From Mobula hypostoma (lineage: Eukaryota), in assembly GCF_963921235.1 (NCBI RefSeq), contig NC_086097.1, positions 120,282,001 to 120,346,000 on the forward strand: DNA of 64,000 bases. Direction: 5' to 3'. Below the pieces are notes generated by a model. It saw only the letters and a program-made list of their open reading frames with translations, searched no databases and was not told the DNA's origin. Below are positions 5,001 through 64,000 of the stretch, one piece after another (position 1 is the first letter of the stretch; the number at the start of each line of letters is the position of its first letter). A program made the translations under genes and the position numbers.

Positions 5001-7131
5001 TGAGTTTGTGGAGTCCCTCCGAGATGGATTCTTAGAACAGCTTGTACTGAAGCCCACCAGAGAGAATACAATTCTGGATTTAGTGTTGTGCAATGAACTG
5101 GATTTGATCAGGGACCTCGAGGTAAAGGAGCCATTAGGAGGTAGTGACCATAATATGATGTTTTAATCTACAATTTGAGAGGCAGAAGGGAAACTCGGAA
5201 GTGTCAGTATTACAGTTGAACAAAGGTAACTAAAAAGGCAATACGCTGAGAAAATGAGGTACGAAGGTAAACTAGCCAAGAATACAAAGGAGGATAGTAA
5301 AAGCTTCTTTAGGTATATGAAAAGGAAAAAAAAAATAGTTAAGACCAAAATTGGGCCCTTGAAGACAGAAGCGGGTGAATTTATTATGGGGAACAAGGAA
5401 ATGGCAGACGAGTTGAACAGGTACTTTGGATCTGTCTTTACCAGGGAAGACACAAACAATCTCCCTCATATTGTAGTGGCCAAAGGACCTAGGGTAATGA
5501 ATGAACTGAGGGAAATTTATATTAGGCAGGAAATGGTGTTGGATAGGCTGTTGGGTCTGAAGGCTGATAAGTCCCTGGGACCTAATGGTCTGCATCTCAG
5601 GGTACTTAAGGAGGTGGCTTTAGAAATCGTGGACGCATTGGTAATCATTTTCCAATGTTCTATAGATTCAGGATCAGTTCCTGTGGACTGGAGGGTGGCT
5701 AATGTTGTCCCTCTCTTCAAGAAGGGAGGAAGAGAGAAAACAGGGAATTATAGACCGGATAGCCTGACGTCAGTGGTAGGAAAGATGCTGGAGTCAATTA
5801 TAAAAGATGAAATTACGACACATTTGGATAGCAGTAACAGGATCGGTCCAAGTCAGCATGGATTTACGAAGGGGAAATCATGCTTGACTAACCTTCTGGA
5901 ATTTTTTGAGGATGTAACCATGAAAATGGACAAGGGAGAGCCAGTGGATGCAGTGTACCTGGACTTTCAGAAAGCCTTTGATAAAATCCCACATAGGAGA
6001 TTAGTGGGCAAAATTAGGGCACATGGTATTGGGGGCAGAGTACTGACATGGACTGAAAATTGGCTGGCTGACAGAAAACAAAGAGTAGCGACCAGTGGGG
6101 TACCGCAGGCTTCAGTGCTGGGACCGCAGCTGTTTACAACATATATTAATGATTTAGATGAGTAAATTAAAAGTAACATTAGCAAATTTGCGGATGACAC
6201 AAAGCTGGGTGGCAGTGTGAAATGTGAGGAGGAAGTTATGAGAATGCAGGGTGACTTGGACAGGCTGGGTGAGTGGGCAGACACATGGAAGACGCAGTTT
6301 AATGTGGATAAATGTGAGGTTATCCACTTTGGTGGTAAGAACAGGAAGGCAGATTATTATCTAAATGGAGGCAAATTAGGAAAAGGGGAAGTACAACGAG
6401 ATCTAGGTGTTCTTGTACATCAGTAACTGAAAGCAAGCACGCAAGTACAGCAGGCAGTGAAGAAAGCTAATGGCATGCTGGCCTTCATAATAAGGGGAAT
6501 TAAGTATAAGAGCAGACAGGTCCTTCTGCAGCTGTACAGGGCCCTGCTGAGACCACACCTGGAGTACTGTGTGCAGTTTTGGTCTCCAAATTTGAGGAAG
6601 GACATTCTTGCTATTGAGGGATTGCAGCATAGGCTCACAAGGTTAATTCCCGGGATGGTGAGACTGTCATACCTTGAAAGATTGGAACGACTGGGCTTGT
6701 AGACTCTGGAATTTAGAAGGCTGAGAGGGGATCTTATTGAAACGTATAAGATTATTAAGGGATTGGACACACTGGAAGCAGGAAGCATGTTCCCGCTGAT
6801 GGATGAGTCCAGAACCAGAATAAGGATAAGTTTAAGAATAAGGGCTAGGCCATTTAGAACGGAGTTGAGGAAAAAGTTTTTCACCCAGAGAGTGGTGGAT
6901 ATATGAAATGCTCTGCCCCAGAAGGCTGTGGAGGCCAAGTCTCTGGATGCTTTCAAGAAAGAGATGGATAGAGCTCTTAAAGATAGCGGAATCAAAGGTT
7001 ATAAGGACAAAGCAGGAACTGGATACTGATTGTGGATGATCAGCCATGATCACAGTGAATGGCGGTGCTGGCTCGAAGTGCTGAATGGCCTACTCCTGCA
7101 CCTATTGTCTATTGTCTATTGTCTATTGTCT
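5001..7131 (+). mobile_element. 5'-truncated CR1 LINE with internal deletions
   Basis: End of APE domain (PLGGSDHNM), RT ORF 5254-6165, later pieces 6217-6426 and 6457-6702, and 3' tail ggcctactcctgcacct(attgtct)n. Confidence 0.95.
5254..6165 (+). pseudogene. CR1 ORF2 reverse transcriptase fragment
   Basis: Motifs NYRP.SLTSVVGK, QHGFTKGKSCLTNL, YLDFQKAFD, GVPQ.SVLGP; stop just before the FADD motif. Confidence 0.93.
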
Positions 7132-12208: not shown

Positions 12209-12706
12209 TTAGCGGAAGTTAGAGAAGTCGATGTTCATGCCATCAGGTTGGAGGCTACCCAGACGGAATATAAGGTGTTGTTCCTCCAACCTGAGTGTGG
12301 CTTCATCTTTACAGTAGAGGAGGCCATGGATAGACATGTCAGAATGGGAATGGGATGTGGAATTAAAATGTGTGGCCACTGGGAGATCCTGCTTTCTCTG
12401 GCGGACAGAGCGTAGATGTTCAGCAAAGCGGTCTCCCAGTCTGCGTCGGGTCTCACCAATATATAAAAGGCCACATCGGGAGCACCGGACACAGTATATC
12501 ACCCCAGTCGACTCACAGGTGAAGTGATGCCTCACCTGGAAGGACTGTTTGGGGCCCTGAATGGTGGTAAGGGAGGAAGTGTAAGGGCATGTGTAGCACT
12601 TGTTCCGCTTACACGGATAAGTGCCAGGAGGGAGATCAGTGGGGAGGGATGGGGGGGACGAATGGACAAGGGAGTTGTGTAGGGAGCGATCCCTGCAGAA
12701 TGCAGA
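12209..12706 (-). CDS. Penelope GIY-YIG endonuclease domain (5'-truncated, no start of its own)
   Basis: GVIYCVRCSRCGLLYIGETRRRLGDRFAEH..LEEQHLIFRLGSLQPDGMN; the frame stays open upstream through the Cys linker CKRNKCYTC to the element edge. Confidence 0.9.
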   Translation of the reverse strand, partial: SAFCRDRSLHNSLVHSSPPSLPTDLPPGTYPCKRNKCYTCPYTSSLTTIQGPKQSFQVRHHFTCESTGVIYCVRCSRCGLLYIGETRRRLGDRFAEHLRSVRQRKQDLPVATHFNSTSHSHSDMSIHGLLYCKDEATLRLEEQHLIFRLGSLQPDGMNIDFSNFR

Positions 12707-13069
12707 GAGAATATTGAAAGGCCTATGTGGAGTAAATGTGGAGAAGATGTTTAGGACCAGTGGACACAGCTTCGGAAAAGAGAGATGTCTGTTTAGAACA
12801 GAGATGTAGAGATGAGGCTAATTTCTTTTTTTTATCCAGAAGGTAGATATTCTGAAAATTATTGCCACAAAAAGTTGTCAAAGCCAAGTCACTGGGTGTA
12901 TTTAAGGCAAAGGTTGATAGTTCCTGATTAGTCATGGGATCAAAGGTTATGGGGAGAAGTAAGGAGAATGGGGTTGAGAGGGAAAAAATCAGCCATGATA
13001 GAAAGTTGGAGCAGACCTGATGTGCCAATTGGCCTAATTCTGCTCCTACGTCTTATAGATCTATAGTCT

Positions 13070-23040: not shown

Positions 23041-23730
23041 CACACTCAGTAGCCACTTCATTAGATACAAGAGTGTACCAAATAAAGTGGCCACTGAGTA
23101 CATGTTTGTGGTCTTTTGCTGCTGTAGTCCATCCACTTCAAGTCCAACATACTGTGCATTCAGAGATATTCTTCTACACACCATTGTTATAGAAACATAG
23201 AAACATAGAAAATAGGTGCAGGAGTAGGCCATTCGGCCCTTCGAGCCTGCACCGCCATTTATTATGATCATGGCTGATCATCCAACTCAGAACCCCGCCC
23301 CAGCCTTCCCTCCATACCCCCTGACCCCCGTAGCCACAAGGGCCATATCTAACTCCCTCTTAAATATAGCTAATGAACTGGCCTCAACAGTTTCCTGTGG
23401 CAGAGAATTCCACAGATTCACCACTCTCTGTGTGAAGAAGTTTTTCCTAATCTCGGTCCTAAAAGGCTTCCCCTCTATCCTCAAACTGTGACCCCTCGTT
23501 CTGGACTTCCCCAACATCGGGAACAATTTTCCTGCATCTAGCCTGTCCAATCCCTTTAGGATCTTATACGTTTCAATCAGATCCCCCCTCAATCTTCTAA
23601 ATTCCAACGAGTACAAGCCTAGTTCATCCAGTCTTTCTTCATATGAAAGTCCTGCCATCCCAACATGTTTGAGTTACTGTAGCTTTCCAATCAGCTTGAA
23701 CCAATCTGACCATTCTATTCTAACCTCTCT
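23041..23730 (-). mobile_element. Tc1 derivative split by a young CR1 fragment
   Basis: Terminal cactcagtagccacttcattagatac at 23043; sequence resumes at ~23661 after the CR1. Confidence 0.8.
23188..23660 (-). mobile_element. Young CR1 3' fragment (~470 bp)
   Basis: ORF 23287-23658 intact (AGLSYEERLDELGLYSLEFRRLRGDLIETYK); (catagaaa)n tail; nearly identical to 34970-35437 and 46050-46520. Confidence 0.95.
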
Positions 23731-23799: not shown

Positions 23800-24630
23800 C
23801 ACGAACCTATGATCAGTTCCAATTCTCAACCAACTTGCTGATTAAAGTTTAAGCAAGATTGAAATCAACAAGGATGACAGTGGAAAGCAATTGGGTGTTC
23901 AGCACTGTTTGTCTCTGTTTGACCAGTCTTCCTCTCCCTCGTTTTGATTTTGATTGGGGTGGACTGGCTCTTCAGCCTACTGTCTGTAAACGACACAGCA
24001 CGAGATTGAACTGAACTGAACTAAGTTCGACATTCCTAAACTGTTTCAAGGACCCCACAATTTCATTCTTAATATTTTGTGTGTTATTTGCTCATTTTTT
24101 GCTGTTTGCACAATTTGTTCTATTTTGTTTTGCGCTTTAGATATCTGATGTTTTCTTTGAATGGATTCCATGCTGTTACTCTGTTTCGTGGCTGTCTGCA
24201 AGAAGATGAATCTCAGGGTTGTATATTGCGTACATACAAGAGGTAATTGATAAATTTGTGCCCTAAGGTAAAAAGAGATGAGTTATTATCTTCAGACTTT
24301 CTGCATAATCACTCAAGGAGTTGAACTGCACGTGCATGTCACAAGAGCTGTATAACTCATCTCCTTCTACCTTAGGCCACAAACTTATCAATCATGCCTG
24401 CTGTGGACCACTTTCTGGAGGTCCAAGATGCTGACTTCTACAAAGAAGGGATCCATGTGCTCCACAACCGCTGGACTAAGTGTGTAAATATAGGAAGGGA
24501 CTATGTTGAAAAATAAATGTGTTAGGTTTTCTAAAATTGACTCCTTCTACCTTAGGCCACGAATTTATCAATCACCCCTCGTACTGCGATAATAAATGTA
24601 CTTTGAATCTTTGAATCTTTGAATCTTTGA
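23800..24630 (+). mobile_element. SINE-like element with Rex1-type tail (second copy), interrupted by mariner
   Basis: Homology to 2415-3127; tail (ctttgaat)n at 24600-24630. Confidence 0.6.
24237..24581 (+). mobile_element. Mariner deletion derivative / MITE
   Basis: TA TSDs (24235-24236, 24582-24583); ~40-bp imperfect TIRs; retains the transposase C-terminus FYKEGIHVLHNRWTKCVNIGRDYVEK*. Confidence 0.88.
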
Positions 24631-25824
24631 AACCCACCCCTGCTGGTGAGTCTGACGGATGGTTAAATCCTAAGGCCAATGCTTCTTTGATGTACTCTTC
24701 CATAGCCATCATTGCAGGATGAGAGAGGGAAATGAGCCAACCATGGGAAGGACTAGTTCTGGGTAAGGGGTGAAATTGTGCAGTCATATGGCCAGTGTTG
24801 AGGCAAGGAGGTGGCCTTCTATTTGCTGAAAACTCAAAAAGGTCAGCACATTCAGTAACGATACTAGACAGGTCCATACCAGCAGTGGACACAGGAGGGT
24901 ATTTGTGGACAGGAGCTTGAGGTGGACCCAAAGAGGTAGACAGGCATGCTTATCCCAAATAGTGTAGCATCTTTAGGAACCAGTGAATCCATGGGTTGTG
25001 TCGAGGTAACTAGGGAAGGCCAAGCCCCAGCAGCTGTTCCGGCGATTCAACCAGATGGAAGGAGAGCTGTTCCCAAATGTTAACCTGTAAAATAAGTTAG
25101 AGGGGTTCTCTGGAAAAGTTCCCAGAGTCCGACCATCCAAGGCCTTGGCATCAATATTTGAGCCAAAGAGATATCCAAAAGGTTTCCAGCTGCCCCGGCG
25201 TCAATAAGTGCCTGAAACTCATGGGTCTAAGAGCCGCACAACAAGGAAGCTGGAAGCATTACACAATGAGGGGAAAATCCTTCCAGGGAGAATCAACCCA
25301 TCAGAATTCCCCTTCCTGTAGAAAGGTATCTTCTTTTACGGGGCATGTGACATCTTGTGGCACCCTTTCTCAGCACTACACAGTTGCCTGATTGCCAATT
25401 CAAATGGCCAGATTACTCAGGAAATCCAGGCTGACCTGCTTGTCATACACTATGATCTCATGCTGGATCTCTGTGCTTAGTTCCTGTTGGAAGGCAGTGA
25501 TGAGGGAATGCTCATTCCACCCTATCCCCACTGGAAGCATGTGGAACTTTACTGCATAATCACTTGCTGTTCCTCTACCTTGGCGCAGATTTAGGGATCA
25601 GTGCCTAGCTTCCTGATCCCATACTGGAAGGTCAATAACTCTCTTGAAATCGAAAACAAATTGCTGAATCAACTGGGCTGCGGTGCAACTTTGTTCCTGT
25701 AGAGTGTTGAACAGGCTGAGTGGGAGCCTGCCTATGTATGCCACCGAACCAACCAGGCTGGGCTTAGAAAGTCACCTCACACTGGGTAATAAAATTCCTG
25801 CAGCCGTTAAGGTCACCTGAGTAT

Positions 25825-27796
25825 GGGGGGCGTCACGTGATGACGTAGGATTGAGACGTGTAAATCCAGCTTTCCCGTAAAAAATCAGCAAAGTACTGTT
25901 TAAACAAAGTAAAATTAATAAATACTTTCCGAAAACTACTTATAAACTTTGTAAGACTACTCTACGATATGCCTCGTAAACCGCAACAGAAAAAGTCTGT
26001 TGTTGTGAAGTCGCCGCGAGATGGGAAGAAAAAAGGGCCTACTGCAGCGATGGAGCCTCGATTCAGGTTGGATCTCCTTCAGAGGAGACGCATTTTATCT
26101 CTGGCGTAGAAGAACGGGGAGCAATAGCGGCTGTAGTGGTCTCTCGGAAGAAGATGTCGGAATTGCGCATGCGCAAATCGACACAATTTAAACTACAAGA
26201 ACCGACAGCCGCTGCAACTGAAAGTGACTCAGAGTCAGAATTGGATACCGCAGAGAATACAGATGAAGAAGAGGAGGAAGAACTGGAAGAGATTGGAGGT
26301 AAAGGAAACGATGGAGACATAAGAGAGGCTTTATTGCAGTTAACGGCTGAATTAAGAAAATTAAGAACAGAGATTAGAGACATGAAGATGTGCTATGATA
26401 AAGCTATGAAAAGACAGGATAAAATGGATAAGAGACTTCAGAAGATGGAAAGAACAATGGAGCATATTAACAATAGAGTGGAAAAAACAGAAAATAATGT
26501 GCTTGTCTGGAACACGGAAAAAAATCAACTCTTGGAGAAAATGGACGTGTTGGAAAATTTTAGTAGACGTAATAACATTAAAATTGTTGGTCTCAAAGAA
26601 GGTATAGAGGGAGATAATCCAACAGAATTTTTTCAAAGATGGATCCCGAAAACGTTGCAAATGAAAGAGGAAGACCGATCAATTAAAATTGAGCGGGTAC
26701 ATAGAGCTCTGAGACCAAAACCACAAGATGACCAATATCCACGATCAATTTTAATCAAATTCTTAAGATTTCAAGACAAAGAAAGGATTCTACAGGCAGC
26801 TGCCCAAGCTGCCAAGAAGAGAAAAGGGCCACTGATGATAGAAGGGAAGAATATTTTTTTCTATCCTGATATAAGTTATGAAGTTTTGAAAAGAAGGAAG
26901 AAGTTTAATCCAGTGGAAAAAACCCTATGGAATTACGGTTATCAATTTATATTGTGTTATCTTGCAACCTTGAAGATTTTCTTGCCTGGTGGAGAAAGAA
27001 GATTTTTTTGATGATTACTGGAAAGCGGAGGAGTTTGTGCGAGATTCTTTGAATATTCACCAGATACAAGAACAAACTTAGGGGAGCGAGATGGATTGAA
27101 GATGAAGACTGGATCAAGGATTAGGCCTGTTGAATTTTTAGGTGGATGAATATATAAATATATTATTAATTACAAGAAGGAGGGGAAGAAAGGTTAAAAT
27201 TTGAGGAATATTAGTTGGGAATAATAACATTAATTTTATATATATATATAATTTTTTGTTACGGGGGAGCTGGAAGAAACATTGTCCAATTGCTACGTTA
27301 TTCATGTGTGCAAGCGTGGCAACAGCCACGACCCGCACAGTGGAGGGGGGTAGTGTTGTGTATCTTTTCATTCACAACATTAGTGGGGGGGTATCTGTCT
27401 TTTTTTTTCTTTTTGCCTGGATGATTGGGAGGGAAGCGTATAGCAACATGGTGAAGTTCAAAGAGATTCCCCAGGGAACTATGAGAGTTGAGAAGCTAAA
27501 TAATGTTTTAGATTTTAAGAGGTAAATATGTAACACTTTTGAATACTTGGAGCCCTTATTTATAGCTCCGATGATGAAGGTCTGGGTTCCTTGGGGGAAA
27601 GTAACAAATATATATTAAATTTATTTTTATCCCATGGAGCATGTGCAAACCTTCCAATATTCAGGCGGTTCCTTTATTTCTCTTTTTTTTTCTTTTCTTT
27701 TTAGGTAGGAGTATATATTGGGGGGGGGAGGGGGAGGGTAGATATTTTTTTTTCTCATGTATCACTTGAAAACTCAATAAAAATTATATTAAAGAA
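25825..27796 (+). mobile_element. ORF1-only L1 element (HAL1-like)
   Basis: 16-bp TSD aaggtcacctgagtat (25809-25824, 27797-27812); G-run 5' end; L1 ORF1; aataaa plus A-rich 3' end; no endonuclease or RT. Confidence 0.9.
25969..27081 (+). pseudogene. L1 ORF1p (coiled coil + RRM + CTD) with two apparent 1-nt frameshifts; core open at 26136-27011
   Basis: LENFSRRNNIKIVGLKEG, IERVHR, PRSILIKFLRFQDKERIL, IFFYPDIS; upstream MPRKPQQKK start and downstream DDYWKAEEF..* lie in shifted frames. Confidence 0.88.
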
Positions 27797-28834
27797 AAGG
27801 TCACCTGAGTATCTGCCTGGTGGAGGAAACTCCTTACTGGTTAGGTTGCAGTTGGGGCATTAGTGGCCTAGATTGATGAACCTTTGAAGAGGAAGATGTG
27901 GGAGATGTTAGAAGTGAGACTGACATGGCTAAAGGCTGCAGAATTGCAGCAATGTGAGTTGCAGTGGTGGTTACCTGATTCTGGCTGTCCATTGTAAGCT
28001 GTGGAACTGTGGCTGTGAGAGCAGTAATCACTGCTGCCTGATCCAGCAGTGTGCCGTGAGCTGCTGAACCATTGCTACAAGGGCTGACACCTGTTCGTCC
28101 AGCTGGGACACTTCTTGCCATTATGAAAGCACCTGCTGCTCTGTGAGAGACACACTGGCCAATCCGGCTTCTACTGATTTTAGTTTCTTCATCACAACTT
28201 TGAGTTGGACTAGCCTTGTCATTCAGAGAGCATCTGTCTCACTGCTTGAGTCTCTACTCCCAATGCAGCTTCAACTGACTGTAACTTCACTCCTATCTGG
28301 CCAATGAATGTCAGCGCCAAGGTCAGTTGTTCTCTCCCTGCTGGGTCCATTCTCTGTTGTCAAAACATTCTGACAGGGATGTGCAGTCAGAGCCCAAGTG
28401 CAGAGGGAGAGACAATGGAATGGATCAATAGTTTACTGACTTTTAATCGAAACTGTGCAGAAATAAAGGAAAAACTATAACACTAGCCCAAACTAAATGC
28501 AAATACAGCAGCTCATCAGTAGTAGCTTAATATTAAACAAGTACTGTTCTTCAGCAGTGTTAGTCTTCTTTCCCAGAACCAAGATAACAGTAAGCAGAGA
28601 GCACTGACATTGCTCTGTTTTTTGTCAAGTCTCGACAAGACTGACACAAGAGCGGGAGAGTTAAGTGTCTCCACAATAAAACACTAATTGTCTGGAACAT
28701 GCAGACTCACAAGTGTGATTGCCGAGCCCATTCCGCAGCCTGCCTGCGAGGGCACGCAGACCCCGTCTTTGTGACAAAACTAGAGAGCTGCAAAAATGGA
28801 CTTCATTGTCAGTTACACTTTAAATTTACTGTAC

Positions 28835-30727: not shown

Positions 30728-31386
30728 TTCCTGCTGCAATAGCCCATCAAATTCAAGGGTCGATGGTTTGAGCATTCAGAGATGACCTCCTGAACACTAC
30801 GAAATGAAGTCCAAGTTTATTTGAGGTACTGTCTCCTTCCTGTCAGCTTGAACAGTCTGGCCATTCTCCTCTACCTCTCTCATTTACTAGGCATTTTTGC
30901 CCACAGTGCTGCTGCTCATCGAAGAAGGAAGTCTGGGAATCGGAGCGGGAGTGCGGAGGAAGCCATTTTTGAATTTTTTGGTTTTTTTTCCATCGGCGTT
31001 CAGAGAGATGGGACTGCGCAGGTATGTGACGTTGGGCAGTGAAGCGCGAAAGATTTAAAAGGACAGAAATCCTGCTTTGGGTTTAATTTGAAGAAGGGAG
31101 TCTGAGAATCGGAGTGTGAGTGCGGAGGAAGCCATTTCTGAATTTTTTTTCCATCGGCGTTCAGAGAGGAGGGACTGCGCAGGCGTGTGACGTCAGGCAG
31201 TGAAGTGCGGAAGATTTAAAAGGAACAGAGCCTCATACAGTGGGCAACGGAGTTCACGGGCAGCGGAGTGAGTTGGGAGCAAAGTGAAGGCTTAAGGGCT
31301 TCGGCTCAATGGGCTTAGGCAGAAACGGGTGAGATGAGGAAGGTTTGGTATTCATTTTTTGTTGTTATTTGAGGAGAGGGCCAGTA

Positions 31387-32322
31387 TGAGTGTGAGGGCA
31401 GTTTTTTGTTCTCGGTGCCGGATGTGGGAGGCCCTGAAGTCTCCAAGCCTCCTGGACGTCTACATCTACGCCAGGCGTGCCGAGGTGCTGCTCCTAAGGG
31501 ACTGCGTTAGGGAACTGGAGCTGCAGCTCGATGACCTTCGTCTGGTCAAGGAGAGTGAGGAGTTGATAGAGAGGAGTTACAGGCAGGTGGTCACACCGGG
31601 GCCACGGGAGGCAGACCAGTGGGTCACGGTTAGGAGGGGGAAGGGGAAGAGTCAGGTAATAGAGAGTATCCCAGTGGCTGTGCCCCTTGACAATAGGTAC
31701 TCCTGTTTGAGTACTGTTGCGGGGGACAGCTTACCTGGGGGGAAGCGACAGTGGCCGTGCCTCCGGCACAGAGTCTGGCCCTGTAGCTCAGAAGAGTAGG
31801 GAAAGGAAGAGGAGGGCAGTTGTAATAGGGGACTTGATAGTAAGAGGGTCAGATAGGCGATTCTGTGGACGCAGTCCAGAGACCCGGATGGTAGTTTACC
31901 TCCCTGGTGCCAGGGTCCGGGATATTTCTGATCGCATCCAAGATATCCTGAAGTGGGAGCGAGAGGAGCCAGAGGTCGTTGTACATATAGGTACCAATGA
32001 CATAGGGAGGAAAAGGGAAGAGGTCCTGAAAGGATAATATAGGGAGTTAGGAAGGGAGTTGAGAAAAAGGACCGCAAAGGTAGTAATCTCGGGATTACTG
32101 CCTGTGACACGCGACAGTGAGAGTAGGAATGCAATGAGGTGGAGGATAAATGTGTGGCTGAGGGATTGGAGCAGGGGGCAGGGATTCAAGTTTTTGGATC
32201 ATTGGGACCTCGTTTGGCGCAGGTATGACCTGTACAAAAAGGACGGGTTACACTTGAATCCTAGGGGGACCAATATCCTGGCGGGGAGATTTGTGCGGGC
32301 TACTGAGGTGACTTTAAACTAG
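31387..32322 (+). pseudogene. CR1 ORF1 (Cys motif, coiled coil, SGNH/GDSL esterase-like domain), disrupted
   Basis: MSVRAVFCSRCRMW; VVIGD.IVRG; VHIGTNDIG; DGLHLN; frameshift near 31740 and stop at 32035. Confidence 0.9.
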
Positions 32323-32423
32323 AATGGTTGGGGGGTGGGAATCAAATTAAAGAGACAACGAGAGAGGCGGTTAGTTCACAACAGGGGAATGGGAACAAGT
32401 GCAGTGTGACAGAGGGGTGTAAA

Positions 32424-35339
32424 ATGAGGGTAGAAGCAAATCGCAGCAAGGTAAAAAGTAAGAGTGGCAGGCCGGAAAATCCAGGGCAAAAATCAGAAAG
32501 GGGCACTTTTCATCATAATTGTATAAGGGCTAAGAGTGTTCTAAAAGCGAGCCTGAAGGCTTTATGTGTCAATGCAAGGACCATTCGTAACAATGTGGAT
32601 GAGTTAAAAGTGCAGTTTGTTATTAATGAATATGATATAGTTGGGATCACAGAGATGTGGCTCCAGGGTGACCAGGGATGGGAGCTCAACATTCAGGGAT
32701 ATTCAATATTCAGGAGGGATTGACATGAAAGAAAAGGAGGTGGGGTAGCATTGCTGGTTAGAGAGGAGATTAATGCAATAGAAAAGAAGGACATTAGCCG
32801 GGAGGATGTGGAATCGATATGGGTAGAGCTGCATAACACTAAGGGGCAGAAAACACTAGTGGGAGTTGTGTACAGGCCACCTAACAGTAGCTGTGAGGTT
32901 GGGGATGGTATTAAACAGGAAATTAGAAATGTGTGCAATAAAGGAACAGCAGTGACTTCAATCTACATATAGATTGGGTGAACCAAATTGGTAAGGGTGC
33001 TGAAGAAGGTTTCTTGGAATGTATGTGGGATGGTTTTTTGACCAACATGTCGAGGAACCAACTAGAGAGCAGGCTATTCTAGACTGGGTATTGAGCAATG
33101 AGGAAGGGTTAATTAGCAATCTTGTCGTGAGAGGCCCCTTGGGTAAGAGTGACCATAATATGGTGGAATTCTTTATTAAGATGGAGAGTGACATAGTTAA
33201 TTCAGAAACAGAAGTTCTGAACTTAAAGAAGAGTAACTTTGAAGGTATGAGACGTGAATTAGCTAAGATAGACTGGCAAATGACACTTAAAGGATTGACG
33301 GTGGATATGCAATGGCAAGCATTTAAAGGTTGCATGGATGAACTACAACAATTGTTCATCCCAGTTTGGCAAAAGAATAAATCAAGGAAGGTAGTGCACC
33401 CGTGGCTGACAAGGGAAATTAGCGATAATATCAATTCCAAAGAGGAAACATACAAATTAGCCAGAAAAAGTGGCTCACCTGTGGATTGGGAGAAATTCAG
33501 AGTCCAGCAGAAGAGGACAAAGGGCTTAATTAGGAAATGGAAAAAGATTATGAGAGAAAACTGGCAGGGAACATAAAAACTGATTGTAAAAGCTTTTATA
33601 GATATCTGAAAAGAAAAAGATTGGTTAAGACAAATGTAGGTTCCCTACAGACAGAAACAGGTGAATTGATTATGGGGAGCAAGGACATGGCAGACCAATT
33701 GAATAAGTACTTTGGTTCTGTCTTCACTAAAGAGGACATAAATAATCTTCTGGAAATAGTAGGGAACAGAGGGTCCAGTGAGATGGAGGAACTGAGGGAC
33801 ATACATGTTGGTAGGGAAGTGGTGTTAGGTAAATTGAAGGGATTAAAGGCAGATAAATCCCCAGGGCCAGATGGTCTGCATCCCAGAGTGCTTAAGGAAG
33901 TAGCCCAAGAAATAATGGATGCATTAGTGATAATTTTTCAAAACTTTTATATTCTGGACTAGTTCCAGAGGATTAGAGGGTGGCTAATGTAACCCCACTT
34001 TTTAAAAAAGGAGGGAGAGGGAAACCGAGGAATTATAGACTGGTTAGCCTTACATCAGTGGTGGGGAAAATGCTAGAGTCAGTTATCAAAGATGTGATAA
34101 CAGCACATTTGGAAAGTGCTGAAATCATCGGACAAAGTCAGCATGGATTTGTGAAAGGAAAATCATGTCTGACGAATCTCATAGAATTTTTTGAGGATGT
34201 AACTAGTAGAGTGGATAGGGGAGAACCAGTGGATGTGGTATATTTGGATTTTCAAAAGGCTTTTGACAAGGTCCCACACAGGAGATTAGTATGCAAACTT
34301 AAAGCACACGGTATTGGGGGTAAGGTATTGATGTGGATAGAGAATTGGTTGGCAGCCGGGAAGCAAAGATTGGGAATAAACAGGACCTTTTCAGAATGGC
34401 AGGCAGTGACTAGTGGAGTACTGCAAGGCTCTGTGCTGGGACCCCAGTTGTTTACAATATATATTAATGACTTAGATGAGGGAATTAAATGCAGCATCTC
34501 CAAGTTGCGGATGACACGAAGCTGGGCGGCAGTGTTAGCTGTGAGGAGGATGCTAAGACGATGCAGGGTGACTTGGATAGGTTAGGTGAGTGGGCAAATT
34601 CATGGCAGATGCAATTTAATGTGGATAAATGTGAGGTTATCCACTTTGTTGGCAAAACAGGAAAACAGATTATTATCTAAATGGTGGCCAATTAGTGAAA
34701 GGGGAGGTGCAATGAGACCTGGGTGTCATTATGCACCAGTCATTGAAAGTGGCCATGCAGGTACAGCAGGCGGTGAAAAAGGCGAATGGTATGCTGGCAT
34801 TTATAGCGAGAGGATTCGAGTACAGGAGCAGGGAGGTACTACTGCAGTTGTACAAGACCTTGGTGAGACCACACCTGGAGTATTGTGTGCAGTTTTGGTC
34901 CCCTAATCTGAGGAAAGACATCCTTGCCATAGAGGGAGTACAAAGAAGGTTCACCAGATTGATTCCTGGAAAGGCAGGACTTTCATATGATGAAAGACTG
35001 GATCGACTAGGCCTATACTTGTTGGAATTTAGAAGATTGAGGGGGGATCTTATTGAAACATATAAAATCCTAAAGGGATTGGACAGGCTAGATGCAGAAA
35101 GATTGTTCTCAATGTTGGGGAAGTCCAGAATGAAGGGTCACAGTTTGAGGATAAAGGGGAAGCCTTTTAGGACCGAGATTAGGAAAAACATCTTCACACA
35201 GAGAGTGGTGAATCTGTGGAATTCTCTGCCTCAGGAAACAGTTGAGGCCAGTTCATTGGCAATATTTAAGAGGGAGTTAGATATGGCCCTTGTGGCTAAA
35301 GGGATCGGGGGTATGGGGGGAAGGCTGGTAGGGTTCTGA
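32424..35339 (+). pseudogene. CR1 ORF2 (APE endonuclease + reverse transcriptase), with multiple stops and frameshifts
   Basis: CVNAR.IRN, DIVGITE.WL, GVVYRPP, SDHNMV, YLDFQKAFD, ADDTKLG; spread over ORFs 32328-35339. Confidence 0.93.
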
Positions 35340-36484
35340 GTTGGATGATCAGCCATGATCATACTGAATGGCGGTGCAGGCTCGCAGGGCCGAATGGCCT
35401 ACTCCTGCACCTATTTTCTATGTTTCTCTGTTTCTATGAATGTTTCCTGTTTTTTGCACTATTTTCTGTAAACTCCAGAGACTGTTGTGCACGAAAATCC
35501 CAGGAAATCAGTAGCTTCTGAGATAATCAAACTATCCTGTCTTCATCAAACAATCATTCCATGGTCAAGGTCACTTAAAGCACATTTCTTCCCCTTTCTG
35601 ATGTTTGATCTGAACAACAACTACCTTTTCTGACCGTATCTGCATGATTTTATGCATTGAGTTGCTGCCATGTGATAGGATTTGCACTAACAAGTAGATG
35701 TACAATGTATCTATTAAAATGGCCACTGAGTATACTTGTGTAAACCTCTCACTGTGGCTCATAATAAACCAGGTTCTTTAGGTAACTCTGGCTAACAGTC
35801 CATGAGTCCATGACTCAGTATTGCATAGGTGATGGTGAGAAAGTCACCTTCAATAAGCAAAACATGTCTAGGGTCAGTCAATATGATTCGGCTTCAACCA
35901 AACAGGAAAGTTGGAATGTTCTGCTGAGGGAACAGAAATTATGGTGAACATGGTACAGAACTGCCCCACACAAAGTTACCCTTCACCAGGAAGTAAAGGA
36001 TCTTACACTAGCAGAAATTCATTATCTTAGTAGAAACCAAAATACTAGACTGTGAAGCTTAATGAACAAAACACACTGCATTTTACAGAAAAGCTGCAGA
36101 AAATAAACGCTGAACAGTACAACGGTAGCAATACAGTGAAACATGTTCTTAACCAGGGCAATACACTTGTAACCCAACAATCATTATTATTATTCCAATA
36201 ATTCATGGACTCCTTGGGGTTGGTATCTTTGATTTATGAAGCTAGATCAAATAATGTATCATTCCCAGCCATGGGAACACACTATAGCAAAATACACGTA
36301 ATGCATTTTACCAGCCTTTTGATATATAGCATTTTGTTAATTGAAACATTCTTCATGATTGCAACCCTTTCATAAATCAAGGAACAACTCGATTTCCTGG
36401 GTGATGTTGAAGGGAACTGAGTAAAATAACTCTAAGCAATTGATGTGCTATCACCCACAAGGCTGTGGGTCAAGTGCTAGGATC

Positions 36485-40089: not shown

Positions 40090-40640
40090 TCTCAAGCGGT
40101 GTTCATGAAACATTGAGTGTGTGTCTTCACACTCCTGGTACCTCCTCCCCAATGGAAGTAATAAGAAGAAGCATGTTCTGAGTGGTGTAGATCCTTAATG
40201 ACAGATGCTACCTTCCTGAGGCATTACCTTTAGAAAATGTCCTCGACGATGGGGAAGCGAGTGTCCAATGATGGAACTGGCTAAGTTTACAATGCTTTGC
40301 AGCATTTTATGGACCTGTGCGTTGGCGTTTCCATAACAGACGGTGATGCAATCAGTCAGAATGCTCTTCACGGTACCTCTACAGGAATTTCCTAGAGTCC
40401 TTGGTGACATATCAAATCTTCTCAATCTCCTAATAAAATATAGCAACTGGCGTGCTTTCATTGTAATTAGATCAGTATGTTTGTCTCAGAATAGGTCTTT
40501 AGAGAAGTTGAACCCAGGAACTTGAAGCTGCTCATACTTTGATGAGGACTCGTGTGTGTTCCCTCAACTTTCCTTTCCTGAAGTCCTCAATCAGTTCCTT
40601 TGATTCACTGATGTTGAGTGAGAGGCTGTTGTGTTGATAG
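40090..40640 (-). mobile_element. Rex1/Babar fragment
   Basis: ORF 40195-40461: KARQLLYFIRRLRRF..TVKSILTDCITVCYGN. Confidence 0.88.
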
Positions 40641-46047: not shown

Positions 46048-47735
46048 AAAACATAGAAAACATAGAAAACATAGAAAATAGGTGCAGGAGTAGGTCATCC
46101 GGCCCTTCGAACCTGCACCGCCATTCAGTATGATCATGGCTGATCATCCAACTCAGAACCCTGTACCAGCCTTCCCTCCATACCCTCTGATCCCACAAGG
46201 GCCATATCTAACTCCCTCTTAAATATAGCCAATGAACTGGCCTCAACTGTTTCCTGTGGCAGAGAATTCCACAGATTCACCACTCTCTGTGTGAAGAAGT
46301 TTTTCCTAATCTCGGTCCTAAAAGGCTTCCCCTTTATCCTCAAACTGTGACCCCTCATTCTGGACTTCTCCAACATCGGGAACAATCTTCCTGCATCTAG
46401 CCTGTCCAATCACTTTAGAATTTTATACGTTTCAATCAGATCCCCCCTCAATCTTCTAAATTCCAATGAGTATAAGCCTAGTTCATCCAATCTTTCATCA
46501 TATGAAAGTCCTGCCATCCCAAGAATCAATCTGGTGAACCTTCTTTGTACTCCCTCTATGGCAAGGATGTCTTTCCTCAGATTAGGGGATCAAAACTGCA
46601 CACAATACTCCAGGTGTGGTCTCACCAAGGCCTTGTACAACTGCAGCAGTACCTCCCTGCTCCTGTACTCGAATCCTCTTGCTATAAATGCCAGCATACC
46701 ATTCGCCTTTTTCACCACCTGCTGTACCTGCATGCCCACTTTCAATGACTGGTGTATAATGACACCCAGGTCTCGTTGCACCTCCCCTTTTCCTAATCAG
46801 CCACCATTCAGATAATAATCTGTTTTCCTCTTTTTGCCACCAAAGTGGATAACTTCACATTTATCCACATTAAATTGCATCTGCCATGAATTTGCCCACT
46901 CACCTAACCTATCCAAGTCACCCTGCATCCTCTTAGCATCCTCCTCACAGCTAACACTGCTGCCCAGCTTCATGTCATCTGCAAACTTGGAGATGCTGCA
47001 CTTAATTCCCTCATCCAAATCATTAATATATATTGTAAACAACTGGGGTCCCAGCACTGAGCCTTGCGGTACCCCACTAGTCACTGCCTGCCATTCTGAA
47101 AAGGTTCCATTCATTCCCACTCTTTGCTTCCTGTCTGCCAACCAATTCTCTATCCACATCAATACCTTACCCCCAATACCATGTGCTTTAAGTTTGCACA
47201 CTAATCTCCTGTGTGGGACCTTGTCAAAAGCCTTTTGAAAATCCAAATATACCACATCCACTGGTTCTCCCCTATTCACTCTACTAGTTACATCCTCAAA
47301 AAATTCTATGATATTCGTCAGACATGATTTTCCTTTCACAAATCCATGCTGACTTTGTCCGATGATTTCATCGCTTTCCAAATGTGCTGTTATCACATCT
47401 TTGATAACTGACTCCAGCAGTTTCCCCACCACCGATGTTAGGCTAACCGGTCTATAATTCCCTGGTTTCTCTCTCCCTCCTTTTTTAAAAAGTGAGGTTA
47501 CATTAGCCACCCTCCAATCCTCAGGAACTAGTCCAGAATCTAAAGAGTTTTGAAAAATTATTACTAATGCATCCATTATTTCTTGGGCTACTTCCTTAAG
47601 CACTCTGGGATGCAGACCATCTGGCCCTGGGGATTTATCTGCCTTTAATCCCTTCAATTTACCTAACACCACTTCCCTACTAACATGTATTTCCCTCAGT
47701 TCCTCCATCTCACTGGACCCTCTGTCCCCTACTAT
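46048..47735 (-). mobile_element. Young 5'-truncated CR1
   Basis: ORF 46797-47708 holds a complete RT core ([23 protein letters not shown]); (catagaaaa)n tail at 46048-46078. Confidence 0.95.
46797..47708 (-). pseudogene. CR1 reverse transcriptase domain, open for 303 aa
   Basis: All RT motifs present; premature stop at 46797-46799. Confidence 0.93.
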
Positions 47736-48142
47736 AGTGCAGACTATTATCTAAATGGGGAGATAATTCAAACATCGGAGATGCAAAGGGACTTAGGAGT
47801 CCTTGTGCAATACTCCCAGAAGGTTAATTTGCAGCTTGAATCTGTGGTAAAGAAGGCAAGTGCAATGTTAGCATTTAATTCAAGGGGAATAGAATAGAAA
47901 AGCAAGGAGATAATGTGGAGCCTTTAAAAGACACAAGTCAGGCTGTACTTGGAGTATTGTCAACAGTTTCCGGCCCCATATCCCAGAAAAAAATGTACCG
48001 TCATTGGAGAGAGTCCAGAGGAAGCTCACGAGGATAATTCCAGGAATGAAGGGGTTAACATGAGAGGAGTGTTGAGCTTATTTGGGCTTTTACTTACTGG
48101 AATTTAGAAGAATGCAGGGGGATCCCATTGAAACCTACCAAA

Positions 48143-52320: not shown

Positions 52321-53409
52321 TATATGAAGCAGTGTATCCAGTGGACCAACTGTAATTTGAATTCTCAAAAGAGTTTCTTTCATTAATAATAAAGCTACAT
52401 GGGAGGGTGAATGAAAGCGGGTATAAATTGGCATTAGGCTATGTCATAATTTCAGAGCATATATTGCTAGATCATATTTTACTTGAATTTGTCTGAATAA
52501 AAAGAAACAAATTGCAAGATGAGCTTTCAAAAATCACTCAAGTGCAAGGTGGACTTTATTCTCCTAAGCAATCTGTCTCCTAAATAATGCCAGGGCCCTT
52601 GGTTAAGTTCTCAAGTGCAGCATGTTTTGAAGCAGTTCCCAGTAATTTCATTGCCTGCAGATTTTTATCCCTGTCAATGTCTGGACAACTCTTCTCCTGG
52701 GAATACGTCTGAGTATTTCTGCATTTCTAGCATTGGAATCTGCAGAGGCACATTGGGGGAGTAAGCTCTACAATTGTCATCAGGTTTAGATATGGCCCAA
52801 GTGCGGAGTGAGAGGCACGAAGTGGGTCGATATTTCACAGACTTTAATGCGAACAGTCTTAAAGGGAGAGCAATAAACTCTAGGCCAAACAAGAACGTTA
52901 GCTAAAACTCTCAAATGGTGAACAAAGCCTACTCTGCGGCTGAAGAGAACAACTAAGAATAAAACAAATACCGCTGGTCTTCAGAGTCAGTTGACCTGAT
53001 TGTCTGATTTCTCAGGCAAGGCAGAATGCAGGCAGCAAAGTGTTGCTGTGTCCTGTCCAGGTCTCGACAAATACTACGGCAGAATGAATGGAATTAAATA
53101 CTATCACAATGAAGTAATAATTAGCTGACATGTGCATATTCACGAGCAAAATTGCCGTATCTGCTGCGCTGCCAAATCCGTGGTTGTGACAGGGCCCCTC
53201 CCCGGCTTGGACCCCTCTCTAGGCGCAGCCCCTGAGGTGCCACAGACCTGTATCTGCTGGAAGTCCCAGGTGAGGGACTTGCCAAAGATGTCCTTCAGTG
53301 ATGCTGATAGATAGGTGCCATGGTGCACTGCCAATACCAGAGCCAAAGACTCCCATGTACAGACAGAAACAAGAGCTTACACAGAGGTAGCTCGATCAAG
53401 TGACACCGT

Positions 53410-54535
53410 GAGAACCTGGGCCTCTGTTCCTCCCTCTGCAATTGGATCTTCGACTTCCGAACTGGAAGACCACAGTCTGTGTGGATTGGTGATAACATAT
53501 CCTCCTTGCTGACGATCAACACTGGTGCACCTCAGGGGTATGTGCTTAGCCCACTACTTTACTCTCTGTATACACATGACTGTGTGGCTAGGCATAGCTC
53601 AAATACCATCTATAAATTTGTTGACGAGACAACCATTGTTGGTAGAATCTCAGGTGGTGACGAGAGGGCGTACAGAAGTGAGATATACCAACTAGTGGAA
53701 TGGTGCCACAGCAACAACCTGGCACTCAACGTCAGTAAGATGAAAGAGCTGATTGTGGACTTCAGGAAGGGTAAGAGGAAGGAGCACATGCTAATTCTCA
53801 TAGAGGGATCAGAAGTGGAGAGAGTGAGCAGCTTCAAGTTCCTGAGTATCAAGATCTCTGAGGATCTAACCTGGTCCCAACATATTGATGTAGTTGTAAA
53901 GAAGGCAAGACAGCGGATATGATTTATTAGGAGTTTGAAGAAACAAATACACTCAAAAACTTCTATAGTTGTATCGTGGAGAGTATTCTGACAGGCTGCA
54001 TCACTGTCTGGTATGGCGGGGGGGGCGGAAGGGCTACTGCACAGGATTGAAAGAAGGTGCAGAAGGTTGTAAATCTAGTCAGCTCCATCTTGGGCAGTAG
54101 CCTATGAAGTACCCAGGATATCTTTAGGGAGCGGTGTCTGAGAAGGTGGTGTCCATTATTAAGGACCTCTGGCACCTAGGGCGTGCCCTTTTCTCACTGT
54201 TACAATCAGGTAGGAGATACAGAACTCTAAAGGCACACACTCAGCGATTCAGGAACAGCTTCTTCCCCTCTGCCATCTGATTCCTTAATGGACCTTGAAG
54301 CTTTGGAAACTACCTCACTTTTTTAATATACAGTATTTCTGTTTTTGCACATTCTTTTAAATCTATTCAATATACATAATTCATTTACTTGTTTATTTAT
54401 TATTATGTTTTATTTTATTTATTATTATTTTTTTCTCTCTCTGCTAGATTATGTATTGCATTGAACTGCTGCTGCTAAGTTAACAATTTCACATCACATG
54501 CCAATGATAATAACCTGATTCTAGTTCTGATTCTC
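53410..54535 (+). mobile_element. 5'-truncated Rex1/Babar LINE inside the LTR element
   Basis: ORF 53479-53922: [37 protein letters not shown]; tail aataacctgattct. Confidence 0.92.
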
Positions 54536-58054: not shown

Positions 58055-61000
58055 TGTTCTTGTTAAAAGGCAAACAGCGCAGATAAGACTAACAAATTTT
58101 AAATCGGGATTCTCCTGGCTGTGATGAGTGTGTGCAATCAGGTCACCAACATCACTTCTAGTTCAGGGTGAAGCAACCACATTGCTCACTGGGACCTTAA
58201 GTTCTTTATTATGTACACCCATAACAACACATCTTCTCTCTTTAAAGAAGAAGCAAACACAATAGTATGTCCTCATGAACCTTCAAGAAACAATAATGCT
58301 TTCCAACCCAAATATTTACATTAGCTTCTATTGAAACGTCCCTGATTCACTCATCAACTCTCAATCAGTTTTTGAGGTGGTTTGATGATCCTTTTTGGTC
58401 TGTTATTTGCCTCCACATATTTATTGCTTTCACTTCAACACACACAAAATACTGGAGGAACTCAGCAGGTCAGGCAGCATCTATCGAAAAAAGTACAGTC
58501 AACATTTTGGGCCAAAACCCTTCAGCAGAACTGCAGATAAAAAGCTGAGGAGTAGATTTAAAAGGCAGGGGGAGGGGAGAGAGAACCACTTTTCGCTCTG
58601 CGCAGGGATCTCTCACTACATGACTCCCTTGTCCATTTGTTCCTCCCCACTGATCTCCCTCTTGGCATGTATATGTGCAGGTGAGAACCTCTTTCTCTGT
58701 TTGTGCATAGTTGGCTTTCACACTTGTTAAAGCTCTTGATACATAGGCCACAGATTGCCATGCGCCATCGTGCTGCTGCGGTAGTATCACTGCAAGGTCG
58801 TATCAGGACACAACAGCTGAGATCCTAGTACACTTTTCCTGATCATAAAACTGCAGCATAGATCTTTTTCAACCTCTGGAAACACTCTTCTTGCTTGTGA
58901 GACCATATCCACTCATTTCACTGCTCAGGAAATGACCTAAGTGATACTGACTCTGTAGACAGTTGTGGGATGAACTTAGCTAGGTTAGTTGCCATCCACA
59001 GGAAATTTCTCATCTCCTTTTTGTTTTGGGACCTCTCTTAGTTCTCAATGTCTGACGTCTTTTTTTGGGTCAAGCTTCACTCCAATATGACATCTCCTAT
59101 GAAAGTCAGTGTCTTAACACCAAATTCACATTTCTCTTTACTTAGTTTCAAAGTGACATTCCATGTCATGTCAAACAACTATCTCAGTTGTGCATCATGT
59201 TCTCCCTTGGTACACCCTCAAATAATGATGTCATCCATCATGGTCTCAACACCAGGTATGCCCTCAGTGATCATGTGGATGGTTTTATGGTAGGCTTCTG
59301 GTGCAGTCAGAATCCCATACAGTAGCCAAAGAAAGTTATATCATCCCTGTGGTGAGTAAAAAGTACACAGTCTCAAACTTGTCTCCTCAAGCTTCATCTG
59401 ATGAAAGCCAGATGATGCGTTGAGTTTGCTAAACCACTTGGCACCTGCAAACCGTGACATGACCACTTCCCATGTTGGCGATTTAAAATGTTTTCTCATG
59501 ATAGCTTTATTGAGATTTCTTGGATCTAAACATATCTGCAATGCTGCATTTCTTTTCCACAATGACCAGTGAGCTCAACCAACCTGTCACTTCTTCAATT
59601 TTCTGTATGACATTTATCCATTCCATATCTGCTAGTTCTTGTTTGAGTCTGTCTCTAAGCGCAAACTGAACTTTACTAAATGCCTGAACAACAGGAGCTA
59701 CTGTCTCATTTTGTGTACACCAGGTAAGCACCCGAGCCCCTGAAAGACATCTGTGGACCTTTCTGTAAGTGAAATGTGGTCATCTTTGGTCTGTGAAGAC
59801 ACTACAAAACTCTTCGAAAGGTTGAGCTTTTCACATCCATTAGACCGAATATTGGCTAATTACTCGCTTTTCTGCAATCGGTAGCAGTGTCTTTAGGACC
59901 TACCCTTGTGTTTGAAGTTCTCTATACAGACCGTTTTACTAGAATATTCTCCCCAGTACAGCCTGTCACTCCTAATTTTGAAACAGATTTATCTGGGCTC
60001 CAGTGTCAAGCTTGAATGGAATTACTATCTCATTCACAGTCACTGGAACAAGCTGTTCTGTTTTATCAGCACAAGCAGTCAGCAGAGAATCCATAAAGGC
60101 TTCTTCCATTTCCTCAGCAACAGTGTACACATTTCTCTTAGTAGCCCCACTTTGCAAAATGATTCTTCTTCCCACAATAATGTGCCTACCTCTATATTTG
60201 CTGCATTTACTGATTGAGCCTACCTCTTTTCTATGCGGTTGCTATTGGAAACACCTTGTACTCTGCCCCTCTTTTCACAGTATGTGCTGTGGTTCCTGCT
60301 CTGTGCAGCTCCTTAGCTTGTGCTTGTGTGATCTCTGCTGCCCTACCCTACACATATTCACAGCCTTTTCCAGTGTCAAATCATTTTCATGGAGCAATCA
60401 TTCTCTGAGCCCATTATTTGAAGGTCCACAAATTGTTTTGTCTCTAACTAGTGAGCCACTCAAATCTCCAAGCTCACAGGAATTGCTCAATGTATAAAGC
60501 TCAGCTAAGTATTGGTCAAAGCTAACACCTTGTTTCCTGTCACAGGAAAAAGACTTACATCTTTGAAATGTGATGTTTTTATTTGGGCAAAATACTTGTC
60601 AAATTTTGTCATCAGAGTTTCCAATGTCAAGGCTGTCTCATCAATTTCAAAGCTGTTATAGATGTCTAAAGCATATTCATCAGTTACATGTAGAAAGATA
60701 GATACATTCAATACTTCCTCCACCCTTCCAGTTTTGCTCGCCACTAAATATATATTGAAGTGCTGTTTGAAGCGTTTCTAGTTTTCAGTTAGATTGCCCA
60801 TAAGTTGCCTAGGTGTGGGAGAACTTTGCTGATCCACTGTGGAGTTTTCAGGCTTCTCTCATCTGAACGTCTCTTGCTGAATTTGGTGAACAACGGCAGC
60901 CTCAGGACATAATGTGGACTCTAGCTGGAAGCTTCTCTCCATCAGAAACTAGCACTTCTTTCTTAATCGCTCGCAGTACATTTACTCTTTGTGTTTAGTC

Positions 61001-63489: not shown

Positions 63490-64000
63490 GAACATGAAAT
63501 AGTACCCACACACTCACACAGCTTTAGATCATCTAGACAACACAAACACCTATATCAGGATGCTGTTCATCGACAATAGCTCAGCATTTAATACCATTAT
63601 TCCCACAATCCTAATTGAGAAATTGCAGAACCTGGGCCTCTGTACCTCCCTCTGTAATTGGATCCTTGACTTCCTAACCGGAAGACCACAGTCTGTGTGG
63701 ATTGGTGATGTAGTCATAAAGAAGGCAAGACAGCGGCTATACTTTATTAGGAGTTTGAAGAGATTTTGCATGTCAACAAATACACTCAAAAACTTCTATA
63801 GTTGTACTGTGGAGAGCATTCTGACAGGCTGCATCATGGTCTGGTATGGAGGGGCTACTGCACAGGACCGAAAGAAGCTGCAGAAGGTTGTAAATCGAGT
63901 CAGCTCCATCTTGGGCACTAGCCTACAAAGTACCCAGGACATCTTTAGGGAGCAATGTCTGAGAAAGGCAGCGTCCATCATTAAGGACCTCCAGCACCCA
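63490..64000 (+). mobile_element. Rex1/Babar LINE with internal deletion; runs off the window
   Basis: [17 protein letters not shown]; near-identical to 53410-53493 and then to 53886 onward. Confidence 0.9.

Follow-up and report, generated by a model that had tools for sequence, protein, structure and literature searches.

The question that this locus raises is whether an L1 retrotransposon of a ray that has lost nearly all of its ORF2 is an isolated damaged copy, or one member of a family that was multiplied in this shortened form. The initial annotation of the window (the whole 64-kb stretch of Mobula hypostoma DNA analyzed here) had read it as an ORF1-only L1 with authentic ends, near-total loss of ORF2 and perhaps a repeated family behind it. 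This reading is supported by the target-site duplication (TSD), the relic of ORF2, both ends of the element and the depth of related sequences in public contigs. We consider with good confidence that the element represents a HAL1-type non-autonomous L1 family of rays, derived by near-total deletion of ORF2 and moved by ORF2p provided in trans. The features found are collected in Table 1.

Table 1. Coordinates of the element, its duplicated target site and the surrounding host repeat in the window.
Feature	Positions	Strand	Remarks
Host repeat, left part	25400..25808	-	Decayed retrotransposon gag-like frame, interrupted by the insertion; repeated in public contigs
Left TSD, 16 bp	25809..25824	+	Preceded by TT, begins AAGG; identical to 27797-27812
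L1 5'UTR, 144 bp	25825..25968	+	G-run start, GTCACGTG motif at 25832, 7 CpG
L1 ORF1	25969..27099	+	Basic N-terminus, acidic stretch, coiled coil, RRM, CTD; broken in this copy
Inter-ORF spacer-like segment, 415 bp	27100..27514	+	T-, G- and AT-runs
Deletion junction	27514..27515	+	ORF2 similarity begins at 27515
Relic, last 16 codons of L1 ORF2 and stop	27515..27565	+	Pairwise and profile match
L1 3'UTR, 231 bp	27566..27796	+	T-rich, G-run; AATAAA at 27776-27781; short A-rich end
Right TSD, 16 bp	27797..27812	+	Exact repeat; an X1 contig over 27768-28033 has 0 differences
Host repeat, right part	27813..28200	-	Continuous with 25824 in other copies (contig joints, loose ends)

A complete unit inserted into an older repeat

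The element is a unit of 1972 bp on the + strand (25825-27796), flanked on both sides by an exact direct repeat of 16 bp, just as the initial annotation had described it. The 16-mer is found at only these two places in the whole window, and the chance of such a match is about 3e-10 per pair of positions, or about 3e-6 over 100x100 placements. The empty site was also detected. In 32 contigs of the run X1 and 38 of the run X2, which are public contigs placed on positions 25400-28200 and correspond to other members of the flanking repeat, position 25824 is joined straight to sequence like that found from 27813 onward. Given this empty site, the 16-bp repeat is a genuine target-site duplication; the element was inserted as one piece into an older repeat. 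The L1 endonuclease has the consensus site TT/AAAA, to which the insertion site, TT followed by AAGG, is a loose fit. Regarding the 3' terminus, the polyadenylation signal that had been noticed is in place, and the A-rich end is present but short, about 6 nt ahead of the right TSD. The TSD and the A-rich end indicate insertion as a unit by target-primed reverse transcription, one of the features of HAL1-type elements. The contigs of X1 agree with both flanks and with the 3' junction with 0 differences. In X2, a contig that starts at 27772 (covering 27772-28200) has 25 letters inside the element, below the threshold of 31 letters for a bridge, a hint that the same insertion may be found at this site in a second organism.

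The left part of the host repeat gave an E of 0.024 with Pfam Retrotrans_gag, below the cut-off, and its first match in the Atlas (0.96) was a gag cluster with PF03732 on 12% of its members. Over a wider span (24575-25808 plus 27813-28359, minus strand) the repeat looks like a decayed gag-protease-RT region of the Ty3/Gypsy type, a reading in which the gag part is weakly supported and the other five frames are without Pfam match. The window contains other retroelements. Related LINE copies with RVT_1, 75-94% alike, are located at 31338-35438 (+), 46052-47753 (-), 5230-7112 (+) and 23189-23663 (-), and we take them to be CR1-like; in the first of them the RT is preceded by a GDSL esterase frame (32038-32319). 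Another type of LINE has left RT fragments at 53404-53919, 63503-64000 and 40198-40485, two of them with an ALKBH8_N match. There is also an RT RNase H match at 58473-58802 (-) and, on the minus strand at 12212-12817, a frame of 202 aa whose GIY-YIG domain (E 8.6e-5) is characteristic of Penelope-like elements.

As in HAL1-type elements, the protein encoded is an L1-clade ORF1p with coiled coil, RRM and CTD, though the frame is broken here. That it is a recognizable L1 ORF1, as claimed at the outset, is borne out by the match to human L1 ORF1p (2ykp; E 1.2e-8, or 4e-13 with a profile), which spans the end of the coiled coil, the RRM and the CTD. Pfam Transposase_22 alone was not significant on this ORF1 (E 0.48); Tnp_22_dsRBD was above the cut-off in two open full-length relatives of it, P0001 and P0002. 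By tblastn the frame was recovered in three pieces (25969-26061, 26064-27008 and 27004-27096), the reading frame shifting near 26060 and again near 27005; a stop at 27079, probably premature, comes five codons short of the likely end at 27099. At both frameshift sites, one-letter indels distinguish other contigs from this copy. Among the differences listed (40 of 620 rows), 7 of the 23 that are near-fixed in ORF1 were synonymous, compared with the 33.5% expected for random transitions (p 0.83), a measure that covers the decay of this very copy and not the source lineage. This copy is dead and its ORF1 is decaying neutrally.

The search for homologues of ORF1 returned 14 proteins, the named ones coming from Mobula, Hypanus, Hemitrygon and Narcine, and 13 of these 14 nearest matches were batoid-named or close relatives. 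The best two, 90% and 78% identical, are both from Mobula hypostoma. In a tree of 28 ORF1s the sequence of the window was sister to Mobula P0003 plus P0001 (support 100/100) and fell inside a clade of 19 rows holding all the batoid-named ORF1s (support 100/99), far away from the mammal-type ORF1 P0014, whose row is long and half filled. The position among batoid ORF1s supports the previous assignment of the element to a cartilaginous fish.

Related ORF1s are also found in ray gene models. RefSeq models of Hemitrygon akajei and Hypanus sabinus (P0015, P0164 and P0165) join a TRIM RING-B-box N-terminus to a related L1 ORF1 that is nearly whole and open, the proteins of the two species being 95% identical; they could be a domesticated fusion, or only an exonised insertion in the gene model. 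In addition, isoforms of TADA1, ADAT1, STXBP6, FAM122B and TEFM in ray RefSeq (P0001, P0004, P0005, P0012 and P0166) match ORF1 over most of the query, and, judging from these isoforms, gene models of rays often incorporate copies of ORF1.

The CpG observed/expected ratio was 1.5 in 25825-25969 compared with 0.28 for the window, in agreement with the G-run and CpG-rich 5' end described initially. In the available text of PMC5381506, fish and frog L1 5'UTRs are 0.14-0.16 kb long with about 7 CpG. The GTCACGTG motif (11-12 nt) was found as well near the 5' end of two of the six fish-type loci compared (L004 and L006), and the 5'UTR is probably an internal promoter. At the other extreme, the final 40 nt gave an alignment with the 3' end of the fish-type L1 L004 that scored 38 (0 of 500 shuffles), the best of five loci. 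The element has therefore, like those of the HAL1 type, an L1 3' end with polyadenylation signal and an L1 5' end, the match at the 5' end being the short motif shared with those two loci. The length of the 415-bp segment after ORF1 fits the spacers of 499, 794 and 1020 nt measured in three fish-type loci; vertebrate L1 inter-ORF spacers are of 257-1032 bp in the part of PMC5381506 available. The segment had no sequence similarity to those fish L1 spacers, so its assignment as spacer is based on position and length.

The relic of ORF2 and the deletion junction

We found no L1 ORF2 in the window, where P0162, a fish-type ORF2 of 969 aa carrying RVT_1, gave only distant RT matches of 22-30% identity (the Pfam scan of the window took in 146 of 174 frames of at least 78 aa outside or opposite the element). 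There was no second copy of the element in these 64 kb either. Within the element, P0162, a query without EN, had no significant match (best E 0.28), no Pfam match to EN appeared in the three element frames scanned, and the longest frame in the 697 bp that follow ORF1 was of 106 aa, without Pfam match. These data uphold the original statement that endonuclease and RT are missing. As in HAL1-type elements, ORF2 with its EN and RT is absent, leaving a C-terminal relic of 16 codons. An autonomous vertebrate L1 is ruled out, a complete ORF2 with EN and RT being absent.

A resemblance to the extreme C-terminus of ORF2 had been pointed out near 27520. Residues 943-958 of P0162 align there without gaps to 27515-27562, with 7 of 16 identical. 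With a single sequence the test was weak (128 of 200 shuffles with the whole P0162, 55 of 1000 with its last 60 aa), and since the comparison to the whole ORF2 was not significant a profile was used instead. The profile was made of six fish-type ORF2 C-termini, all from non-ray L1s (the full L1 loci came from metagenome contigs), and it was the initial hint that directed it to the C-terminus. Its best match was again 27515-27562, with a score of 29.5, the best of 64 window tiles; shuffling 27100-27796 gave as high a score 3 times in 2000, and shuffling the whole element 3 times in 1000. The resemblance thus holds. True ORF2 C-termini, left out in turn, scored 25-39 on the same columns, and the value of the relic is within this range. 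Three differences are listed for the relic in other copies, with effects on the profile score of -5.8, +3.8 and +6.0 (net +4); one of them affects the column that is F in all six ORF2s.

Just upstream of the relic, the conserved E-K-L-x-Y columns of ORF2 are unmatched at the junction. After 27514, 8 contigs of X1, one of X9 and one of X11 continue as loose ends up to 30 letters long. At the end of these extra 30 letters there is a start codon followed by two more codons, all in the frame of the relic, and this suggests that the start of ORF2 was fused to its end over 19 codons; the N-termini of fish ORF2s are too variable to judge the three codons at the junction (that of L041 begins MSNL, others differ). 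Thirty more nucleotides at the junction, kept by at least some other copies, have disappeared from this one. From 5' to 3', the element is composed of 5'UTR, ORF1, spacer, 16 terminal codons of ORF2 and 3'UTR, so that ORF2 has lost about 3.7 kb.

A probable family of copies and the alternatives to it

The evidence for a family comes from the public contigs of four runs (X1, X2, X9 and X11) placed on 25400-28200. X1 and X2 are DNA runs with two organism labels; X9 and X11 are guessed to be RNA and, being contigs, are silent on transcription. X1 agrees with the flanks at 0 differences and may be the source of the window itself, so it does not count as independent here. Over the 2801-bp stretch we placed 3286 contigs of X1 and 2819 of X2, mostly 90-99% alike. 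The mean summed depth in X1 was 16.0k at the 5' end, 16.9k in ORF1, 15.4k in the spacer, 16.8k in the junction bin and 8.3k in the 3'UTR; the corresponding values in X2 were 45k, 48k, 33k, 30k and 15k. The contigs of this locus itself have a depth of about 10 (X1) and 38-70 (X2), and the flanks of 0.5k and 1.7k. Summed depth is inflated by overlapping contigs and is no copy number; read in this way, the whole unit including the spacer is about a thousandfold deeper than the locus in two organisms, with no excess at the 3' end, and it is likely that there are hundreds of copies or more. Ordinary 6-kb L1 families are dominated by 5'-truncated copies and are much deeper at the 3' end. The absence of a 3' excess here is not the shape expected of such a 5'-truncated family. 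Full-length L1s are rare in fish, according to the available part of PMC5381506. Actually, the depth of the 3'UTR was half (X1) or a third (X2) of that of ORF1, in part due to the skipped repeats at 27672-27707 and to the last bin, half of which is outside the element; some copies bearing ORF1 may have other 3' ends.

The junction itself is bridged by a contig of X2 (242 nt on 27350-27561, with 30 gaps) that passes without ORF2 from 165 nt on the left to 47 nt on the right. It differs at 14 of 212 letters, compared with 3 of 182 for the left-flank contig of X2, a divergence that makes it probably another copy, i.e., a paralogue. It was the only bridging contig among those listed (32 of 6926 pieces and the best 24 of 845 loose ends), and none of these showed another copy with a TSD of its own. 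Overlapping contigs of other copies cover 26982-27172, 27180-27452, 27262-27454, 27350-27561 and 27629-27793.

Alternatively, an ordinary autonomous L1 of the ray may have given rise, once or rarely, to an internally deleted copy, whether while being reverse transcribed, through splicing of its RNA or subsequent to insertion, and the relatives seen in many copies would be normal L1s that carry ORF2. We regard this as unlikely. An ORF2-bearing parent would show the same loose end at 27514 finishing in a plausible ORF2 start, the bridging contig is a single one among those listed, and related ORF1s (P0009 and P0163) are carried by two ENA contigs whose sizes, 7616 and 6025 bp, agree with those of full L1s. 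However, these two are just about 45-50% identical to the ORF1 of the element, and no ORF2-like loose end enters at 27515 among the best 24 of 845. The same join without ORF2 is found in another organism in a contig 6.6% divergent, the depth lacks any 3' excess, and it would be uncommon for a fish to have L1s by the hundreds at full length and few truncated ones, judging from the portion of PMC5381506 at hand.

Searches for a parent gave the following. Proteins with ORF1 and ORF2 fused were absent among 6899 candidates, which is weak evidence, and no EN or RT Pfam match appeared in the 29 representatives scanned of the 150 listed; in one of them, P0136, a piece of ORF2 was seen by eye. Related ray loci were found neither in viral contigs nor, by ORF1 alignment, in metagenome contigs. 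A scan with ORF2 returned 80 of 252 loci, and none of the 14 compared had a significant blastn match to the element. In summary, the protein, viral-contig and metagenome-contig searches yielded no ray ORF2 or parent L1. One side product was an L1-like ORF2 fragment (L081, 6746-8227), 40% identical to P0162, in a 208-kb viral contig of IMG/VR, where it is surrounded by large viral-looking frames. In X9 and X11 there is a deep, diverged subfamily over 26583-27140. It is about 85% alike, the sequence that follows its ORF1 is a different one (joint at 27076-27140), and it could represent either the parent L1 or another ORF1-only family.

That subfamily also suits the possibility of an ORF1-only family of chimeric origin, in which 5'UTR, ORF1 and spacer would come from one L1 family and relic plus 3'UTR from another through a template switch; several families with different tails might then share this ORF1. 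The lower depth of the 3'UTR relative to ORF1 points in the same direction. Against it, the terminal 3' bin is about as deep as ORF1 once corrected for half coverage, and the start codon in the extra 30 letters is in frame with the relic, as fits a simple deletion (the chance would otherwise be 1/3), so that we give this origin little credit. As to wrongly joined L1 pieces or a chance repeat mistaken for a TSD, no single listed contig spans the whole unit, but the exact TSD with its empty site, the X1 contigs that match both flanks and the 3' junction without differences and the overlapping contigs from other copies along parts of 26982-27793 make such an artefact extremely improbable.

Under the HAL1-type reading, this copy is most likely a full-length (about 2 kb), now dead member of a family of myliobatiform rays. 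A single internal deletion, from just past the ORF2 start or inside the spacer to 16 codons before the ORF2 end, would have removed about 3.7 kb of ORF2 from an ancestral ray L1. The shortened element would then have been transcribed from its own 5'UTR and have made an ORF1p that coated its own RNA; the endonuclease and reverse transcriptase needed for target-primed reverse transcription would have been borrowed from an autonomous L1. Its shortness would leave most copies complete and with the promoter kept. Later, frameshifts, about neutral substitutions and the loss of 30 nt at the junction would have accumulated in this copy. Mobilization in trans by the ORF2p of an autonomous L1 is proposed by analogy with mammalian HAL1 and with the ORF1mneoI reporter, which moves when given ORF2p in trans and a functional ORF1p (PMC11260458, in the text available); in guinea pig, HAL1 has kept its ORF1 over a long time (PMC3627910, available in part).

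A bolder version goes further, and we put it forward tentatively, as somewhat short of an even chance. The family would be independent, number from hundreds to a few thousand copies and be the first of its type described in non-mammalian vertebrates; a single deletion would have fused the ORF2 start codon in frame to the last 16 codons; it would far outnumber its autonomous partner, and would be the source of the L1 ORF1 exons joined to host genes in RefSeq models of several ray genera. If this is true, its paralogous copies allow a test of selection on cis-made ORF1p in a non-autonomous element outside mammals.

Comparison with known ORF1-only and deleted LINEs

Mammalian HAL1 (half-L1) elements were reportedly the subject of work by Bao and Jurka in 2010. 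In the accessible parts of the sources, HAL1 has ORF1p as its sole protein and originated several times among mammals (PMC5753468), is present "throughout mammals" (PMC13756887), reaches about 7500 copies in rat (PMC2241872) and is found in bats (PMC3342881), with further accounts in PMC8535693 and PMC4859970. Since HAL1 arose several times in mammals, a separate origin would belong to a known pattern. The literature on HAL1 and non-autonomous L1s that we consulted has no report of HAL1 from non-mammalian vertebrates. There is no mention of it in the available part of PMC5381603, nor any occurrence in the main text of the manta genome and Squalomix preprints, whose supplements or repeat libraries may list the family. 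A survey from 2016 found L1 in Chondrichthyes as fragments only (PMC5203782, in its available part).

Like the HAL1 of mammals (rat RNHAL1, bat HAL1-1A_ML, guinea pig HAL1), the ray element derives from L1, keeps the 5' end and ORF1 and has lost ORF2, and it has an L1-like 3' end and a TSD and is apparently repeated. In contrast, its ORF1 is placed among the L1 ORF1s of batoids, far from the mammal-type P0014, and it has a fish-type 5'UTR of 144 bp, a complete inter-ORF spacer and the 16 final ORF2 codons. Descent from mammalian HAL1 is ruled out, given that its ORF1 nests with those of Mobula and stingrays. With the autonomous L1s of fish and frogs (PMC5381506, in part, and the loci L001-L007, L021 and L041) it shares the short 5'UTR with about 7 CpG, an ORF1 of about 1.1 kb, a spacer of several hundred bp, the C-terminal F-x3-W-x-P of ORF2, the T-rich 3'UTR and the AATAAA end, but it is without some 3.7 kb of ORF2 (EN, RT and cysteine-rich region), measuring 2.0 instead of about 5.8 kb.

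Similar situations are described in other LINE clades in the available text of PMC5786205. HeT-A (Jockey, Drosophila) and Ag-Sponge (CR1, Anopheles) encode only the ORF1 protein too and borrow the RT, although they belong to other clades and hosts, and no telomere role is suggested for the ray element. The bipartite LINEs without ORF, such as coelacanth RTE-N2_Lch and Bov-A, were likewise formed by an internal deletion that joined 5' and 3' parts, and the host of RTE-N2_Lch is a non-mammalian vertebrate; they differ in being of the RTE, Ingi, Vingi or R2 clades, a few hundred bp long and without protein (PMC5786205, same part). The ORF1-only design is one already known that recurs in other LINE clades, and what would be new is the cartilaginous-fish host. 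This bears on the repeat annotation of ray genomes, in which gene models absorb ORF1 exons. HAL1 elements are natural evidence that an RNA that makes its own ORF1p is a favored substrate for borrowed ORF2p. If true, a separate origin in cartilaginous fish, with another type of promoter and a long spacer, would make this route general to vertebrate L1, and would provide the outgroup to mammalian HAL1 for testing selection on the ORF1p encoded in cis.
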